From: an uncultured Ferrovum sp.
GTDB taxonomy: Bacteria; Pseudomonadota; Gammaproteobacteria; Burkholderiales; Ferrovaceae
Direction of reading: 5' to 3'
NCBI GenBank assembly: GCA_903909215.1
Contig: CAIVUX010000022.1
Span: 7,609-71,608, forward strand
DNA: 64,000 bases
In this document: in pieces, positions 22,991 to 55,755 of the stretch
How the letters are laid out: every line of letters starts with the position of its first letter
How positions within the stretch are numbered: position 1 is the first letter of the stretch
The notes under the pieces: model-generated
Seen by the model: the letters and a program-made list of their open reading frames with translations, nothing else
Told to the model about the DNA's origin: nothing
Databases searched by the model: none
Translations under genes and position numbers: made by a program

Positions 22991-23902
22991 CTATTTTGGT
23001 TTCTTGGGGGCGGTTAACCCCAAGGTGCGGTGTGTGAGAGCGGGCAAGCTTAAACGCAAATCGGCCAAGTGAATGGGGTTTACGCCGGCAATGACAATGC
23101 CAGAACCGCGCGGCAATTGGTCGAGAACCACGCCCCAAGGATCCACAATCATACTGGAGCCATGGGTTTCACGACCATTCTTGTGATAACCCCCTTGCGC
23201 GGGCGCCACCACATAGGCCAGGTTTTCAATGGCGCGTGCACGGATCAGGGTTTCCCAATGGGCGCGGCCCGTGGTCTCGGTAAATGCTGAGGGGATAAAA
23301 ATTAAATCCACCGAACCCATGGCGCGGTAGAGCTCGGGAAAGCGCAAGTCGTAGCAGATGGATAGACCAATACGTCCGAAGGGGCTGTCGAGAGCCACTA
23401 CTTCATCGCCCGGTTGAATGGTTTTTTCTTCTTCGTAATGCTCAGCGCCCCGCCTAAAGCCAAACAAATGAATTTTGTCGTAACGGGCTACGCAATGGCC
23501 TTCGCTATTAAACACCAGGCAACTGTTGCGAATTTTTTTAGGGTCAGACCCCGTTAAGGGGGCTGACCCCTTAATCGTTTTAATCGGCACCGAGCCGCCC
23601 ACAATCCACACGCCATAACGCACCGCGGCACGTGCCAGAAATTCTTGAATGGGGCCTTTGCCAAAATCTTCTGCAGCGTTAATTTTATCTGTTTCACGCA
23701 TGCCCATAATGGCGAAATATTCTGGTAATGCCACAATAGAGGCACCTTGATCTGCCGCCATTTTAATGAGTCGACCGGCTTCAGATAGGTTTCCACCCAC
23801 ATTAGGACCCGAGGCCATCTGGATGGCGGCCACGCGAAAACTACCCGGTAAAGGGCGCGCTTTACCAAATCCTGAATCAATTTTTTTAGGGGAAACGCTC
23901 AT
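22991..23902 (-). CDS. Carbon-nitrogen hydrolase (nitrilase superfamily) protein
   Basis: The Glu-Lys-Cys triad contexts are present: VALPEYF, RYDKIHLF, GLSICYDLRFPE. The start was trimmed to the ATG at 23902 (MSVSPKK...), 10 nt downstream of the yhdP stop. The gene carries a palindrome pair in a loop (KGSAPLTGSDPKK). Confidence 0.85.
   Translation of the reverse strand: MSVSPKKIDSGFGKARPLPGSFRVAAIQMASGPNVGGNLSEAGRLIKMAADQGASIVALPEYFAIMGMRETDKINAAEDFGKGPIQEFLARAAVRYGVWIVGGSVPIKTIKGSAPLTGSDPKKIRNSCLVFNSEGHCVARYDKIHLFGFRRGAEHYEEEKTIQPGDEVVALDSPFGRIGLSICYDLRFPELYRAMGSVDLIFIPSAFTETTGRAHWETLIRARAIENLAYVVAPAQGGYHKNGRETHGSSMIVDPWGVVLDQLPRGSGIVIAGVNPIHLADLRLSLPALTHRTLGLTAPKKPK
23540..23570. repeat. 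Degenerate inverted pair of the 13-bp palindrome (AGGGTCAGACCCC, then gttaa, then GGGGGCTGACCCC)
   Basis: Each copy differs from GGGGTCWGACCCC at one position. On the minus strand it is read as G-S-A-P-L-T-G-S-D-P inside the CN-hydrolase gene. Confidence 0.85.
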
Positions 23903-30378: not shown

Positions 30379-31037
30379 CTGTTTTGAAATACGTCGGCCA
30401 GTAAGTCCACGTCCTGCAAAATACCTTTATCCTCCACATCCACCCAAGTAATGCTTAGAGCATGGCGTTGCAACAGTGAGCGCGCCCCTTCATCACCTCG
30501 CAGTGCCATAAGCTCATTCCAATAGCGTCGAGAAAAGCCCACCGGATTACCCCGTGACCCCTGATAACACGGCACCACGATATCCGCCCCTTGCTCTAAG
30601 GCTTCTCGCAGCGCCGACACGGTGGAGGACTGTACCCAAGGCATATCGCCCAAGGCAACAATCCAGCCTGCAGCATCCGCGCTGCCCATAAGACCGCTGC
30701 GCAAGCTGAGCGACTGGCTTGGGATTAGTAAATATGGGGTCTGACCCCTGGGGGGGTCAGACCCCATATTTACCGTGTTTACCATGCTGACTAACTTCAA
30801 GTCAGCGGAGGTTACAGACACCACTGTTAAATTGGGACGCGAGGCGCCTATGGGGTTTTGTTGCAAAACGGCGCATAGGGGGGATGAGTCATCAGGCACC
30901 ACCGCCAGACTTTGCTGCAACGAGACCAAGCATTGAGCGGCGCGTACCACTACCGGCACGCCTTCTAATGCATGCAGTAATTTGTTGCTGCCAAAGCGTG
31001 AACTCTGCCCTGCGGCCAACAAAATTCCCACGATCAT
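30375..31037 (-). CDS. MobA-like NTP transferase (MocA-type molybdenum cofactor cytidylyltransferase) carrying a palindromic-element insertion
   Basis: N-terminus GILLAAGQSSRFGSNKLL and GDMPWV are typical of the MobA/MocA family. An ATGA overlap links it to xdhC. At 220 aa it is about 25 aa longer than the family members I remember, and the extra segment coincides with the repeat at 30729-30772. Confidence 0.8.
   Translation of the reverse strand: MIVGILLAAGQSSRFGSNKLLHALEGVPVVVRAAQCLVSLQQSLAVVPDDSSPLCAVLQQNPIGASRPNLTVVSVTSADLKLVSMVNTVNMGSDPPRGQTPYLLIPSQSLSLRSGLMGSADAAGWIVALGDMPWVQSSTVSALREALEQGADIVVPCYQGSRGNPVGFSRRYWNELMALRGDEGARSLLQRHALSITWVDVEDKGILQDVDLLADVFQNS
30729..30772. repeat. Perfect 20-bp inverted repeat: TAAATAT-GGGGTCTGACCCC, a 4-nt spacer (tggg), then GGGGTCAGACCCC-ATATTTA
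   Basis: Read directly from the sequence. On the minus strand it is translated in frame as V-N-M-G-S-D-P-P-R-G-Q-T-P-Y-L inside the MocA-like gene. A second 7-bp-stem hairpin, GCTGACT/AGTCAGC, lies at 30786-30806. Confidence 0.95.
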
Positions 31038-39469: not shown

Positions 39470-40510
39470 ATGAATCCATCGCCACTTTTCTCCTCAAACC
39501 CTAAGGCTAGCCCCTTTCGAGCCCCCAGATGGCTGGGTGATCCTCATGCACAAACCCTCTATGGCGCCCTATTAGCACCCGTCGGCACGCCGCTCTGGCA
39601 ACGCGAAACATGGACCACCCCCGACAATGACTTTATCCATGTGGATACCCTAGAGGGGGCGCCCGACGCACCCTTACTGGTGATTTTTCATGGGCTGGAA
39701 GGCAGTACCAACTCACGCTACAGCCGCGCGTTAGCCCTTGCAACACAGGCACGGGGTTGGCGTGTATGCGCGCCCAACTTTAGAAGTTGTAGCGGCATCA
39801 TGAATCGCGCTCCGCGTCTGTATCATGCAGGCGACAGTGCCGAGATTGACTGGATTTTAAAACGCGCCTGGACCTTGGGGTCAGACCCCACTACTCTTGT
39901 GGGGTCTGACCCCAAAGTGCAACGACCCATGTTCGCGGTAGGCGTATCTTTGGGCGGCAACATGTTGCTGAAGTGGTTGGGCGAGCAAGGCGCTACAGCC
40001 AAACCTATCCTACATGCCGCCGCCGCCGTGTCTGCACCCCTGGATTTGGCTGCTGTGGCGGAAAACCTGTCTTTGGGTTTTAACCGCGTCTACACCCACC
40101 ATTTCTTAAGCACCCTTAAACAAAAGGCGCGCGCCAAATACGCACAGCACCCACACCTGTTCGACTTACACCGCACGCTGTCCTCGCGCACCATGCGTGA
40201 CTTTGACGATCACTTCATGGGACCGGTGCATGGCTTTCGTGATGCCGAAGATTATTGGGCACGCTCTAGCAGCACACCGTTTTTGCCGCTGATTCAGGTG
40301 CCCACGCTGTTATTAAACGCTCAGGATGACCCTTTTATGCCCGCCGGCGTGTTGCCTAATGCCCGCCAATGCGCCACGGCTGTTAGACGCGACTTTTCAG
40401 CACAAGGCGGTCATGTGGGATTTGTGTCTGACGGTTTTCCCGGCCATTTAAAGTGGATGCCGCAGCGGGTATTGGATTTTTTGGCGTCCTCTTTAAACCC
40501 AATCAGGTAA
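39470..40510 (+). CDS. Alpha/beta hydrolase, YheT/ABHD1-3-like, carrying a palindrome-pair insertion
   Basis: Contains HGLEGS, a nucleophile elbow GVSLGGN, and a C-terminal DDPF...GGHVGF. An ATG at 39470 follows the TTG used by the track. An extra segment, LGSDPTTLVGSDPK, lies just before the nucleophile elbow. Confidence 0.8.
   Translation: MNPSPLFSSNPKASPFRAPRWLGDPHAQTLYGALLAPVGTPLWQRETWTTPDNDFIHVDTLEGAPDAPLLVIFHGLEGSTNSRYSRALALATQARGWRVCAPNFRSCSGIMNRAPRLYHAGDSAEIDWILKRAWTLGSDPTTLVGSDPKVQRPMFAVGVSLGGNMLLKWLGEQGATAKPILHAAAAVSAPLDLAAVAENLSLGFNRVYTHHFLSTLKQKARAKYAQHPHLFDLHRTLSSRTMRDFDDHFMGPVHGFRDAEDYWARSSSTPFLPLIQVPTLLLNAQDDPFMPAGVLPNARQCATAVRRDFSAQGGHVGFVSDGFPGHLKWMPQRVLDFLASSLNPIR
39877..39913. 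repeat. Inverted pair of the 13-bp palindrome (GGGGTCAGACCCC, an 11-nt spacer, GGGGTCTGACCCC)
   Basis: Both copies are perfect. It is read on the plus strand as G-S-D-P-T-T-L-V-G-S-D-P within the hydrolase gene. Confidence 0.95.
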
Positions 40511-50703: not shown

Positions 50704-51351
50704 TTAGGGTGGTAATAGCTTGTTTCTTAAGGCTATTAAAGTTAACTCGGCTTGGTTTTTCGCGGCCAGCTTTTGTTTGATGTTGTACAGATGGGTCCCC
50801 ACAGTGCGGGGGCTTAAAAACAAGGTTTCGGCAATCTGTGCCACAGACTGTCCGGCTGCCAAATGCATAAACACTTCAAACTCACGCTCAGAGAGCACTT
50901 CCACGGGGTTAGAAGACCCAGAAAGAGATTCTTCAACCAGCGCTGAGGCCAAGTGAGGGTCCAGATAGGTTTCATTGCGCGACACTTGCCAGAGGGCTTT
51001 GATGAGCTCTTCTGCCGCACTGCGTTTGGACAAATAACCGCGCGCGCCGGCGGCCATGAGGCGCCGTGGGTGCACGGTATCTTCATGAGCCGAGAGAATC
51101 AATATGCGCGCATCGGGGTGATGGGCCAGAATGCGACTTAAGGCCTCCATGCCTCCAATGCCTGGCATAGACACATCCATCACCAGTACATCGGGCAAGG
51201 CCTCAGGGTAAATACGGCACGCCGCCTCGCCACTGTCGGCCTCGGCGCATACCACCATGTCACCACCGCCCTCCACCAACATACGAAATCCCATGCGCAC
51301 CACCGCATGATCATCTGCCAACATGACACGCAAAGGATGCGCACTCTTCAC
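50704..51351 (-). CDS. NarL/FixJ-family response regulator (REC + LuxR-type HTH)
   Basis: REC motifs (LADDH, DVLVMDVSMPG) and a C-terminal LSEREFEVFMHLAAGQSVAQIAETLFLSPRTVGTHLYNIKQKL. A GTG at 51351 forms a GTGA overlap with the kinase stop. An alternative ATG lies at 51324. Confidence 0.85.
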   Translation of the reverse strand: MKSAHPLRVMLADDHAVVRMGFRMLVEGGGDMVVCAEADSGEAACRIYPEALPDVLVMDVSMPGIGGMEALSRILAHHPDARILILSAHEDTVHPRRLMAAGARGYLSKRSAAEELIKALWQVSRNETYLDPHLASALVEESLSGSSNPVEVLSEREFEVFMHLAAGQSVAQIAETLFLSPRTVGTHLYNIKQKLAAKNQAELTLIALRNKLLPP

Positions 51352-52709
51352 GAAGGTCCCCCTAAGGGCAAGAATACCTCCACACAAAATCCTTGACCGG
51401 GTGTACTGGTCACGTCAAAACGCCCACCCAACGCCTGCACACGCTCACGCATACCCAATACACCAAAACGGTTATCCTTCATTTCGTCCAACGCCATACC
51501 ACGGCCATCATCCGCCACGCGAATGGTTAATTCCTGAGGTTGCGCCGTCACCGTCACCTCGATGGTTTCGGCTTCGGCGTGACGCACAGTGTTGGTCAAA
51601 CATTCTTGCACCACACGATAAACAGTAATGCGCAAAAAGTCAGGCAACGCTTCTAAGTCACCAACCAACGTAATCAACAGATGATGCTCTGGATAGAGGT
51701 TGCGATGCGTGCGCACCAAATCATTGAGCGCCTCGCTAAGGCCTAAATTATCCAAGGCCAAGGGGCGCAATTGCCGCACCATACGGTGCATGGCGTCATA
51801 CATGGTGCCCGATACGGAAACAATCGCTTGTGCGCGCTCAGTCATTTCAGGATGAGTGGCAGCGCTCTGCTGTGCAATCGTGGTGGCAATGGTGCGCACG
51901 GCGGTCACCGACTGCCCCAACTCATCATGCAATTCACGGGCCAAGTTACGCCGCTCGTCTTCTAAGTGCGACTGAATAAGGGCCGACACTTCGCGACTGT
52001 CTTGTAGCTCTTGTGCGGTTCTGGCCGCAGCTTTTTTAATCAGAAAGCTCTCTTCCACTGCTTGAGCCATACGATTAAAAGCCCGTCCCAACAATGCCAT
52101 CTCGCGCATACGCCAATTGGGTAAGCGGGTGTGAAATTCCTTTCTCTCCATTTGCTCTAATCCCAAAATGAGATCACGCAAAGGCGCCAAAGCACGCCCC
52201 ACAATCACATACAGTACCGCATTCACCAAAACGAAAAAAGCCAGTACCAACCAAAGAATTTTTTGCAATTCATCCCATGCGTCCACCACAGAACGCGAGG
52301 CATCGGGGGCAATGACCATATGCCCCCCTGGAAACTCAATGGATACAGGGGACGCTTGCGGAGTTACCCATTCGGCAAACCAAAGTGGGGCGTAATGACC
52401 GGCTTTATATTGAAAAGGAGGAGATTTATAAACCAATAGATCCGCAGCATTGTAGAGCGCAATGTCATGTGCCCGTACGCGCCCCACACGGTTCATGAAC
52501 TCCACCAACAGTTTGGGCGTAACGGCCTGTCCATTAGAAACCACGTCATGCATCATGGTGCCCAATAGTTGCACCGTAATACGAGTGGATCCTTCCATCT
52601 CCTCTCGAATACTGCGCCGTGATGCATCCACTTCTAAAAACAGCAAGGCCGAGATGAACAGAATCATCAAGGTGGTAATGAGCAAGTTAATTTGATTGCG
52701 CAGCGTCAT
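51348..52709 (-). CDS. Sensor histidine kinase, HisKA_3 (NarX/UhpB-like) with two TM segments and a HAMP domain
   Basis: H-box ELHDELGQSVTAV and an HATPase_c region (DDGRGM ... GVLGMRERV ... GGRF). Trimmed to MTLRNQ (ATG at 52709). The track extension reads through the intergenic palindromic element. Confidence 0.85.
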   Translation of the reverse strand: MTLRNQINLLITTLMILFISALLFLEVDASRRSIREEMEGSTRITVQLLGTMMHDVVSNGQAVTPKLLVEFMNRVGRVRAHDIALYNAADLLVYKSPPFQYKAGHYAPLWFAEWVTPQASPVSIEFPGGHMVIAPDASRSVVDAWDELQKILWLVLAFFVLVNAVLYVIVGRALAPLRDLILGLEQMERKEFHTRLPNWRMREMALLGRAFNRMAQAVEESFLIKKAAARTAQELQDSREVSALIQSHLEDERRNLARELHDELGQSVTAVRTIATTIAQQSAATHPEMTERAQAIVSVSGTMYDAMHRMVRQLRPLALDNLGLSEALNDLVRTHRNLYPEHHLLITLVGDLEALPDFLRITVYRVVQECLTNTVRHAEAETIEVTVTAQPQELTIRVADDGRGMALDEMKDNRFGVLGMRERVQALGGRFDVTSTPGQGFCVEVFLPLGGPS

Positions 52710-52775
52710 AAAAAAACAAACCAAAATTTCAATCACATATGATACCAGAGCGAGCGCTCTGCCCCGCTCTGGGGC

Positions 52776-52819
52776 ATAATTTGGGGTCAGACCCCGCATG
52801 GGGTCTGACCCCAAATTAT
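52776..52819. repeat. Perfect 20-bp inverted repeat: ATAATTT-GGGGTCAGACCCC, a 4-nt spacer (gcat), then GGGGTCTGACCCC-AAATTAT. Intergenic.
   Basis: Read directly from the sequence. It has the same architecture as 30729-30772. It lies in the divergent kinase/folA promoter region and ends 13 nt before the folA ATG at 52833. Confidence 0.95.
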
Positions 52820-52832
52820 GAAATGGACGACC

Positions 52833-53333
52833 ATGACACAACCCAAGCTATCCCTCATTGTGGCCATGACCCCCGAGCGGGTGATTGGGGCCCATAACAC
52901 CATGCCCTGGCATTTGCCGGCGGACTTGGCTTTTTTTAAGGCCACCACCATGGGTTGCCCTATTGTTATGGGCCGAAAAACCTTTCAATCCATTGGTCGG
53001 CCCCTGCCTGGTCGGCGCAACATTGTGCTGACCCGTGATAAACAATTTTCAGCTGCCGGCATTGAAGTAGCCTATTCCATCGAAAAAGCACTGGAGAGTT
53101 GCGCGGGTGTAGGAGAGGTTTTTGTTATTGGCGGCGCTGAATTATTTGAGTCCACCTTGAGCGCTGCGCAACGCATTTATCTCACACACATTGACGCCCA
53201 CCTAGAGGGCGATACGTTTTTTCCAGAATTAGAAAACGGAGCCTGGCATGAAACGTCGCGCCGCACTCATCCACGGGATGAGCGCAACGCGTACAACCTA
53301 AGTTTTAGAGTGCTGGAACGTACGGCCTGCTGA
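52833..53333 (+). CDS. folA: Dihydrofolate reductase
   Basis: Contains LSLIVAMTPERVIGAHNTMPWHLPADLAFFK and GRKTFQSIGRPLPGRRNIVLT. An ATG at 52833 is preferred over the track start at 52818, which lies inside the repeat arm. Confidence 0.93.
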   Translation: MTQPKLSLIVAMTPERVIGAHNTMPWHLPADLAFFKATTMGCPIVMGRKTFQSIGRPLPGRRNIVLTRDKQFSAAGIEVAYSIEKALESCAGVGEVFVIGGAELFESTLSAAQRIYLTHIDAHLEGDTFFPELENGAWHETSRRTHPRDERNAYNLSFRVLERTAC

Positions 53334-55095: not shown

Positions 55096-55755
55096 TCATC
55101 GACGCGCTGGCCCAGGTGCTTGATTTAATACCTGATATAGCTCCACCAGAATACCGGCCGTGGCACCCCAAATATGCCAATCCTGATAGGGAATGCTGTA
55201 ATAGCGCCGTTTCTGGCCCGCCCTCATAACTTCCTTAATCACGTGACGCGTTGGATCAAAGAAATGTTCCAGGGGCACTTCAAAAATTTCAGCCACTTCA
55301 AACTCATCGGCTTTAAGGGTTAGCGGGGGCTGCACCCAACCCACCACAGGAATGACGCGATACCCCGTGGGAATAAAATATTCCCGCAAGGTGCCCAGCA
55401 CCTTGACCTGTTGTGGCAACAGACCAATTTCCTCTTCGCTCTCGCGCAAGGCCGTGTGAATTGGATTGGGGTCTGACCCCTCAATGCGTCCACCGGGAAA
55501 GCTAATTTGTCCCGCATGATCACTCAGATGCAAAGTGCGTTTGGTGAGCAGTACATGAACGCCTTCAGGTCGATCCACCAAGGCCACCAATACGGCGGCT
55601 GGAACGGCGGCCAGACAGGCTTCCTCAGTCATCATGATGCGACCATCAAAAAAGGGCGCTGCAGGTGCGGCATTCAAAGAATCTTGAATCCATTCCTGCA
55701 GCGCTTCACGTGCTACTGATGCGTGACGCAAACGCTGAATCAGTGGCATCACCAT
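55096..55755 (-). CDS. NUDIX hydrolase, CoA pyrophosphatase (NudL-like)
   Basis: Nudix box GGRIEGSDPNPIHTALRESEEEIGL preceded by HAGQISFPGG. It is collinear with E. coli NudL as I remember it. Confidence 0.8.
   Translation of the reverse strand: MVMPLIQRLRHASVAREALQEWIQDSLNAAPAAPFFDGRIMMTEEACLAAVPAAVLVALVDRPEGVHVLLTKRTLHLSDHAGQISFPGGRIEGSDPNPIHTALRESEEEIGLLPQQVKVLGTLREYFIPTGYRVIPVVGWVQPPLTLKADEFEVAEIFEVPLEHFFDPTRHVIKEVMRAGQKRRYYSIPYQDWHIWGATAGILVELYQVLNQAPGPARR
55468..55480. repeat. Single perfect copy of GGGGTCTGACCCC inside the Nudix box region
   Basis: Exact match. On the minus strand it is read as E-G-S-D-P-N. Confidence 0.95.

Follow-up and report, generated by a model that had tools for sequence, protein, structure and literature searches.

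The 46-nt hairpin that lies upstream of folA in the window analysed here, a 64,000-nt stretch of contig CAIVUX010000022.1 from an uncultured Ferrovum sp., is probably a local doublet of a short palindromic word that is iterated throughout this genome, maintained by a sequence-specific process, and tolerated at folA rather than dedicated to it. The word, hereafter P, is the 13-nt sequence GGGGTC[A/T]GACCCC, and we followed it through the genome assembly of 1.53 Mb (51 contigs, 99.85% complete, 52.6% G+C). We regard the folA copy as an insertion that is tolerated and has a mildly modulatory role at most, and not as a dedicated regulatory device. A dedicated regulatory role is possible but unsupported, and a tolerated repeat copy fits the evidence better.

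A repeat finder identified positions 52775-52820 of the window as a perfect palindrome whose two arms, 52775-52795 and 52800-52820, are 21 nt each and 100% complementary. The first-pass annotation of the window had described the same element with arms one pair shorter; its description otherwise stands. Read in the order CATAATTT-GGGGTCAGACCCC-GCAT-GGGGTCTGACCCC-AAATTATG, the element consists of the following parts:

52775-52820: complete palindrome, composed of an 8-nt flank arm, P, a 4-nt loop, P and an 8-nt flank arm (repeat finder and RNA fold)
52775-52782, plus strand: left flank arm CATAATTT, with CATAAT at 52775-52780 (conservation of GGCATAAT in relatives)
52783-52795: left P, GGGGTCAGACCCC, centre A (genome-wide P count)
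52796-52799: loop GCAT, polymorphic in the natural population as GCAT or GTAC (strain sequences)
52800-52812: right P, GGGGTCTGACCCC, centre T (P count and repeat finder)
52813-52820, plus strand: right flank arm AAATTATG, which holds an in-frame upstream ATG at 52818-52820 (repeat finder and relatives)

The right flank AAATTATG is an exact inverted copy of the left flank CATAATTT, and its minus strand carries a mirror CATAAT from 52820 to 52815. Folded as RNA, the 46-mer reaches -39.5 kcal/mol (z = -9.9 against shuffles) and its 30-nt core -29.1 kcal/mol, and the hairpin ends 12 nt before the folA AUG. The sequence GGGGTCAGACCCC, with at most one mismatch, has 22 strand-matches in the window, compared with 0.05 in shuffles.

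At the level of the whole genome, perfect copies of P outnumber near-copies. The genome contains 336 perfect matches to P, 67 that carry a single mismatch and 34 that carry two, as against 0, 4 and 32 for a control word. More than half of the one-mismatch copies (38 of 67) deviate at the outermost base alone, so that imperfections of the inner 11-mer are very rare. Together, the copies group into 226 loci, made up of 102 singles, 99 doublets and 25 larger arrays, at a density of one per 4.6 kb and with a spacing along contigs that is close to exponential. Adjacent copies are separated by 4 nt in 96 cases and by 5 nt in 15. Of the 96 pairs spaced by 4 nt, 64 have the A..T orientation, in which the 5′ copy on either strand is the one with centre A. 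Loops are very diverse, with more than 30 different ones among the 64 A..T doublets, and some recur: CCCA/TGGG 11 times, GCAT 10 times and GATTT several times. Flanking bases show a preference for WTW before P and for the complement, WAW, after it; in the family consensus, T-rich sequence precedes the hairpin and A-rich sequence follows it.

The loci are distributed unevenly with respect to genes. Those between genes make up 34%, compared with 6.5% expected, a five-fold enrichment, and intergenic P favours gaps between convergent genes (38% versus 17% by length). A crude gene call placed 98 of the 226 loci (43%, compared with 78% expected) deep inside open reading frames (ORFs), where P is read in frame. 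The centre base of P has no polarity relative to GC skew, on which ground we rejected a Chi/KOPS-like strand polarity. All of these counts are lower bounds: 26 of the 102 contig ends carry P, often as P-TGGG-P (for example, contig:positions C3:1-45, C9:1-50, C17:1-30, C27:1-45 and C33:1-30), and the 5′ ends of contigs C3 and C19 are mutual reverse complements over a stretch exceeding 60 nt. Long palindromes are thus where the assembly breaks, and P is undercounted as a result.

Within the family, P has expanded in this genome alone. The other 32 genomes contain 0-8 copies each, with 0-8 in genus g7 and essentially none in the remaining genera. In g7, the nearest genus, there is one P doublet with a 5-nt spacer (G043:C83:2223-2253), and the control word count in the g7 genomes is 0. 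We found no published description of the word, the literature matches being unrelated primer and viral hits, and the sole repeats mentioned in the Ferrovum genome paper are clustered regularly interspaced short palindromic repeats (CRISPR).

The effect of the word extends to proteins. The tetrapeptide GSDP occurs 96 times in the proteome, compared with 5 expected, and 87 of the 96 are encoded by P; GQTP (51, with 4 expected), GLTP (66, with 11) and GVRP (32, with 9) are likewise in excess, and almost all come from P. The DNA word thus visibly shapes the tetrapeptide content of the proteome. For 14 protein segments that bear P, orthologues were taken for comparison from three genomes, which belong to the two nearest genera. 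Among the nine alignable coding singles, protein length was unchanged in eight, and the ninth showed a 1-residue gap at MurE. Some singles sit on peptides that already fitted (ELGGSDP in aldehyde dehydrogenase, QSGSDP in MiaB and ISGQTP in LivG) and others on near-fitting peptides (GEDP or GQDP to GSDP, and GQNP to GQTP), single P being written by substitution even where the amino acid changes. Coding doublets, by contrast with the singles, are insertions, which add 12 residues in an alpha/beta hydrolase and 6, 5 and 3 residues elsewhere. The orthologue alignments indicate that a single P arises by substitution and that a doublet adds a second, inverted word by insertion. The doublet core of 13 + 4 + 13 = 30 nt is a multiple of 3, and the reading frame is therefore preserved. 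Elsewhere in the genome, a seemingly paralogous gene pair (C21:429 and C34:3512) carries a single P at the same position (LTGLGSDPILLVDNGS).

Doublets also extend outward more often than chance allows. When right flanks were permuted among 65 isolated doublets, extra flank complementarity of at least 5 nt, observed in 12 of the 65, arose in 0.78 doublets on average and in 4 at most, and that of at least 8 nt, observed in 9 of the 65, in 0.17 on average. In triples of the form P-s-P-s′-P, the two spacers are exact reverse complements in 8 of 15 cases, each with a chance of 1/256, which gives nested palindromes centred on the middle P (for example, C6:5792-5838, C19:54295-54341 and C45:2507-2553). 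Direct target duplications are absent, a repeat of at least 3 nt occurring in 1 of the 65 doublets, compared with a permutation mean of 3.2. The flank and triple patterns resemble what hairpin-templated (template-switch) synthesis yields at quasipalindromes, and both the mirror-copied flank at folA and the P-s-P-s′-P triples would, we propose, be due to such synthesis. Template-switch mutagenesis at quasipalindromes has been established experimentally in E. coli (PMC7202029, PMC6357072). A separate doublet subfamily, of the form GGGGTnnGTATT-P-loop-P-AATACnnACCCC, shares longer common arms in which GGGG-N8 units recur with a 12-nt period (C7:3568, C19:64, C23:106, C42:1-45 and C3:1-45); because these arms are shared, some extended arms may be inherited and not locally made.

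Having characterized the family, we turned to the folA locus. The intergenic gap is 123 nt long (52710-52832), as the first-pass annotation had stated from the kinase start at 52709 and the folA start at 52833. The two genes are transcribed in opposite directions, away from each other. The genes, and two further features of the gap, are:

52833-53333, plus strand: folA, dihydrofolate reductase (DHFR), 166 amino acids (DHFR_1, E = 8e-62)
51348-52709, minus strand: HAMP/HisKA_3/HATPase sensor kinase, with its ATG at 52709 (domain search)
50704-51387: LuxR-type response regulator, downstream of the sensor kinase (domain search)
52739-52747, minus strand: box 1, extended -10-like TGGTATCAT (plus strand ATGATACCA), which points left, now towards the kinase (conservation)
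52745-52772: second, smaller inverted repeat CCAGAGCG...CGCTCTGG between box 1 and a second box described below (-15 kcal/mol, z = -3.1)

We found folA in 28 genomes of other genera in the family, at 45-64% identity. The kinase does not adjoin it there; the neighbour on that side in relatives is a GTP cyclohydrolase II-like gene with the motif HSECLTGD...CDCG (in L086, and in others by eye), which has no orthologue adjacent to folA in this genome. A folA homologue search among the genome contigs returned distant matches only (identity at most 56%), from which synteny is not readable. Two boxes are conserved across these intergenic regions. Box 1, ATnATACCAGAG, is kept in 16 relatives, and its minus strand reads as an extended -10, TGGTATnAT. 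Box 2, GGCATAAT, precedes folA in this genome and in the 12 relatives that belong to genera g3, g7 and g8, 31-48 nt to the right of box 1 and 8-46 nt ahead of the folA ATG. Judging from this conservation, CATAAT at 52775-52780, which matches box 2, is probably the folA -10 hexamer, and boxes 1 and 2 would be back-to-back promoters that face away from each other. Between the two boxes, the stem CCAGAGC/GCTCTGG of the smaller inverted repeat is partly present, and in some relatives only. Its 3′ arm is in tandem duplicate (CGCTCTG CCC CGCTCTG), for which slippage or templated copying beside the P element may again be responsible.

Against this conserved background, the hairpin is an addition. Here, just 2 nt separate CATAAT from the start of P. 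None of the 28 relatives examined, all of other genera, has P in the folA leader, and the examined leaders contain no sequence like the right flank AAATTATG; the comparison of the same intergenic region across relatives thus lends no weight to the regulatory role that the first-pass annotation had considered for the hairpin. Because the box is kept in relatives that are free of P while AAATTATG mirrors CATAATTT, the left flank is ancestral and the right flank new, in keeping with templated growth. Relatives' leaders, measured from the predicted start, span about 1 to 38 nt, and for this reason the folA leader appears to be evolutionarily loose.

Taken together, these comparisons suggest a course of events. 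A sequence-specific process would maintain P across the 1.53-Mb genome. A single P would be written by point substitution into nearly fitting codons, to be read as GSDP, GQTP, GLTP or GVRP, and the addition of a second, inverted P 4 nt away would create a hairpin. Once a hairpin is present, fold-back or template-switch synthesis could copy one flank, inverted, to the other side, and the palindrome would grow outward. At folA, the doublet would have arisen 2 nt downstream of the ancestral -10 box CATAAT, and CATAAT plus TT would have been mirror-copied rightward to give AAATTATG, lengthening the leader by about 38 nt. The retained -10 would place the folA transcription start inside the left P, near 52787-52790, so that the 5′ end of the mRNA would form an 8-9-bp GC-rich stem (CAGACCCC/GGGGUCUG) with a 4-nt loop, followed by about 24 unpaired nt with a weak Shine-Dalgarno sequence (GGA) and the AUG. 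Folding from a start at 52788 does predict a 5′-terminal hairpin. The mirror copy would also supply a second CATAAT on the minus strand, aimed at the kinase gene.

The most likely local effect, inferred from this model, would therefore be a short 5′-terminal hairpin on the folA mRNA. 5′-terminal stem-loops protect bacterial mRNAs from 5′-end-dependent decay, the ompA 5′ hairpin being an example, and the one modelled here would shield the folA mRNA in the same way and leave the ribosome-binding site unmasked. The predicted folA transcript is like the ompA type in having an 8-9-bp GC-rich hairpin within 0-2 nt of its 5′ end, and unlike it in that the folA start site is a prediction only. At least part of the hairpin probably does belong to the folA 5′ untranslated region (UTR), as had been proposed, since the probable promoter is on one side of it and the start codon on the other. 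The right arm does create an in-frame ATG at 52818, 15 nt upstream of the folA start; as a start codon it is disfavoured, being lost in one natural strain, and orthologues, with N-termini MTQP[KR]LSL, align from the ATG at 52833.

Other roles that the first-pass annotation had considered fared less well. It had placed the hairpin on the divergent kinase promoter; the leftward extended -10 has a predicted start near 52732, which would put the element upstream of that promoter, at about -43 to -88, and it would not be transcribed from there. A terminator or insulator was rejected: the hairpin is followed by AAATTATGAAAT and not by a U-tract, no terminator was called, the flanks in the family are T-rich before and A-rich after, and divergent genes, transcribed away from each other, require neither. 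As for a regulatory RNA structure, the Rfam covariance models matched no known cis-regulatory RNA, returning sub-threshold generic hairpin (miRNA precursor) matches and a weak sucA-II match (21 bits versus a gathering score of 70).

Natural variation at the locus separates the P arms from the rest of the element. Metagenome searches gave ten strain-level sequences of the folA locus, one of which, L166, was aligned in full over 4.5 kb and is 97.4% identical to the window; a public metagenome collection lists the variant DHFR protein in 113 of its blocks. In all ten, the element occupies the same position and its P arms do not vary. Two loop alleles, GCAT and GTAC, occur on different flanking haplotypes, with no intermediates in the ten sequences. 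Within the 123-nt spacer, L166 shows four differences from the window, of which two lie in the 4-nt loop, and loops therefore turn over faster than arms. The flank also varies: L249 has AAATTACG, in which the upstream ATG has become ACG and the terminal stem pairs are lost. The six sequences that span the single P of the Nudix gene all have it unchanged, and its adjoining bases vary. Three P words are thus invariant in 6-10 strain-level sequences. The loop alleles have a further consequence for annotation. Public kinase gene calls track them, with 483 amino acids in GCAT strains (L246/L248) and 453 in GTAC strains (L247/L249-L251), because the GCAT loop supplies an ATG on the minus strand in frame with the kinase ORF. 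We judge the 483-residue long form to be an annotation artefact.

Elsewhere in the window, four of the five other P loci lie deep inside ORFs by the crude gene call, and the fifth is a decayed pair (23540-23570) that was not classified; the folA copy is the sole clearly intergenic one found in the window, in agreement with the first-pass annotation. That annotation had also likened the folA hairpin to a copy in a MobA/MocA gene, and the two indeed share one design with different 8-nt flank arms, GTAAATAT/ATATTTAC in the latter. Copies that bear on the argument are:

30729-30772: sister doublet in the MobA-like gene, in frame, flank arms GTAAATAT/ATATTTAC, loop TGGG
39877-39913: sister doublet with an 11-nt spacer in the alpha/beta hydrolase gene; a 12-residue insertion relative to 19 orthologues
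55468-55480: the Nudix-gene single P, retained by each of the six 20-kb strain sequences spanning the site

Three direct P copies with 27- and 36-nt spacing were also observed at 518-593, where they encode RGQTPK repeats in the C-terminal tail of a 779-residue protein.

Several points weigh against the reading of the folA hairpin as a tolerated doublet downstream of a retained promoter. The assignment of the folA -10 is based on conservation alone, and a consensus sigma-70 scan of 52400-53100 gave no promoter, with no convincing -35 present. If ATnATACCAGAG acted as a -10 on the plus strand, the leader would include the whole 46-nt hairpin, with 3 nt left between its end and the Shine-Dalgarno GGA, and an effect of the hairpin on translation would be possible. 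Every strain sequence recovered has the element, a fixation that is compatible with neutrality and with function alike. Simple palindrome correction leaves the two-base loop difference GCAT/GTAC unexplained; simple quasipalindrome correction does not fit as its cause, and ectopic conversion between doublets is possible. Finally, a P-binding protein might act at the folA promoter.

Two alternatives give the element itself a function at folA. As a dedicated cis-regulator, the full hairpin would sit in the folA 5′ UTR beside the ribosome-binding region and tune translation or mRNA stability. Its high stability, its position 12 nt before the AUG, its retention in all ten strain-level sequences and the plus-strand reading of the upstream box are what such a regulator would lead one to expect; the same core, however, occurs at about 226 loci, about 43% of them deep inside ORFs, the folA leaders of all other genera lack the hairpin and are evolutionarily loose, no Rfam family matched, the hairpin has no ligand- or protein-specific feature, and loop and flank vary in the population so that the generic P arms alone are fixed. 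We therefore regard this explanation as quite unlikely. Slightly less so, although still unlikely, is that P serves a DNA-binding protein as its binding word across the genome, for instance as a nucleoid, segregation or self-recognition tag of the kind of HIP1, the highly iterated palindrome of cyanobacteria. At folA, the protein or an extruded cruciform on the folA start, upstream of the kinase promoter, would repress or couple both genes. HIP1 is likewise thought to be selected for a DNA-level function that is unknown (PMC5861425), and a binding word would account for the very sharp mismatch spectrum, the substitution of singles even where the amino acid changes, the even, near-exponential spacing without strand polarity, and the invariance of P arms between strains that are 2.6% diverged. 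No candidate protein was identified, though, only one genus is affected, and the fixed 4-nt doublet spacer together with the complementary triple spacers suggests single-strand hairpin chemistry and not duplex binding.

The remaining alternatives concern how P spreads. It is very unlikely that P is an uptake sequence of the DNA uptake sequence (DUS) or uptake signal sequence (USS) type, enriched by biased uptake and recombination of the species' own DNA with inverted pairs as by-products. ComEC is present in this genome, and singles accumulate by substitution at fitting codons, as in uptake sequences; the P core presumably also has GTCTGA in common with the Neisseria DUS, a comparison that we take as a lead only. 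P is palindromic, however, its density of one per 4.6 kb is below that of DUS or USS, and its doublets insert inside genes. The ComP_DUS receptor domain (PF16732) is absent from this genome, on which ground a Neisseria-type DUS was rejected, and is present in genus g6 of the family. A motif search of N-termini found one cluster of four prepilin-like genes, which resemble type II secretion pseudopilins. The larger g6 genomes (G005, G011 and G017; L162-L164) encode several ComP_DUS-domain proteins, with scores of up to 78 bits, and may carry an uptake sequence of their own. Least probable, to the point that we give it little credence, is a non-autonomous element like a REPIN (a hairpin-forming pair of repetitive extragenic palindromic, REP, units) or a miniature inverted-repeat transposable element (MITE), moved by a transposase whose gene lies elsewhere, perhaps within a gap of the assembly. 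An inverted, hairpin-forming doublet is the REPIN architecture (PMC3116915), doublets are true insertions, some loops recur, and P at 26 of the 102 contig ends means that sequence is missing near copies. Nevertheless, the 99.85% complete genome has no Y1 transposase (PF01797), for which control genomes did match, direct target duplications are absent, more than 30 loops occur among 64 A..T doublets, and the origin of singles by substitution is impossible for transposition. Seven genes have P on either side; read over the first 60 residues, with no family search made, none of them begins in the manner of a transposase, and as candidate drivers they were dropped, since by the same reading they start like ordinary housekeeping-type proteins. 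REPINs driven by a REP-associated tyrosine transposase (RAYT) were accordingly rejected for want of a Y1 transposase and because the loci are not restricted to extragenic DNA, and a MITE was rejected because direct target duplications are absent. Dcm/Vsr-type biased repair was rejected as well, a search of the genome having found neither a C5 methyltransferase (PF00145) nor a Vsr endonuclease; N6 and N4 methylases were not searched for.

A bolder version of the iterated-doublet reading, which we put forward tentatively and consider unlikely, is that P is the recognition word of an undescribed, sequence-specific system of this streamlined betaproteobacterium from fresh water, one that writes the word into fitting codons and seeds hairpins that grow by templated inverted copying, rewiring promoters and leaders. 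If so, one event at folA would have given a 5′-hairpin-capped mRNA, a new CATAAT facing the two-component operon, and start codons on both strands, and iterated palindromes would generate promoter and leader rewiring instead of being passive tags. Lineage-specific iterated palindromes such as HIP1 are still unexplained, and the present case is unusually clean: a small genome with a 13-nt word whose loci exceed 220 in one genus and which is nearly missing from sister genera, in which substitution, insertion and palindrome growth can be read straight from orthologue comparisons. The folA copy appears to illustrate an element landing in a promoter, with the -10 box kept and mirror-copied and the mRNA 5′ end changed. 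Natural loop and flank alleles segregate in lake metagenomes, and folA is essential and trimethoprim-relevant. The P family as a whole is nonetheless more important than the single folA copy.

Comparison with known systems places the family between several of them. Quasipalindrome template-switch mutagenesis (PMC7202029, PMC6357072) is alike in that hairpin-templated synthesis perfects inverted repeats, and unlike in that it is a general mechanism with no element family, whereas here it would be repeated on one seed word and build long palindromes. Like P doublets, which are in-frame insertions in coding genes and are translated as extra loops, Rickettsia palindromic elements (RPE) enter genes. 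RPE are 100-150 bp long and spread by insertion only, whereas the P unit is 13-46 nt and single P copies are substitutions. DUS of the Neisseriaceae and USS of the Pasteurellaceae are words of about 10-13 nt with a DNA-level drive and a preference for fitting codons. P shares with them the fitting codons, the frequent inverted pairs and the sharp mismatch spectrum; it differs in being palindromic, in the lack of a ComP receptor and of an evident type IV pilus, in pairs that have no U-tract after them, and in doublets that insert into genes.

The closest parallels are with REP elements and HIP1. REP and REPIN elements are mobilised by RAYT transposases (PMC3116915, PMC3337134). Both they and P form hairpins from inverted pairs of short palindromic units in hundreds of copies, with enrichment between convergent genes and a bias to gene 3′ ends. 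In contrast to REP/REPIN, the P genome has no RAYT gene, about 43% of P loci lie inside coding sequence, the spacers are only 4 nt and highly variable, and single units arise by substitution. An influence on mRNA stability is a further property of REP elements. HIP1 (GCGATCGC) is a highly iterated palindrome of cyanobacteria whose function is unknown (PMC5861425, PMC4390886). Like P, it is a short perfect palindrome in huge excess whose perfect copies outnumber near-copies, it occurs inside genes in several reading frames as well as between genes, and its single copies are made by substitution and not insertion. HIP1 sites are conserved between close genomes; the P words compared are invariant at the strain level, and sister genera have 0-8 copies. 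The differences are that P has 13 nt and HIP1 8, that P occurs about once per 4.6 kb and HIP1 up to once per gene, that P is limited to one genus of Betaproteobacteria, that P pairs into hairpin doublets whose loop is fixed at 4 nt and also builds larger nested palindromes, and that no C5 methyltransferase or Vsr was found in the P genome. The P family is thus HIP1-like in its abundance, substitution origin and intragenic presence, and REP/REPIN-like in its hairpin doublets.

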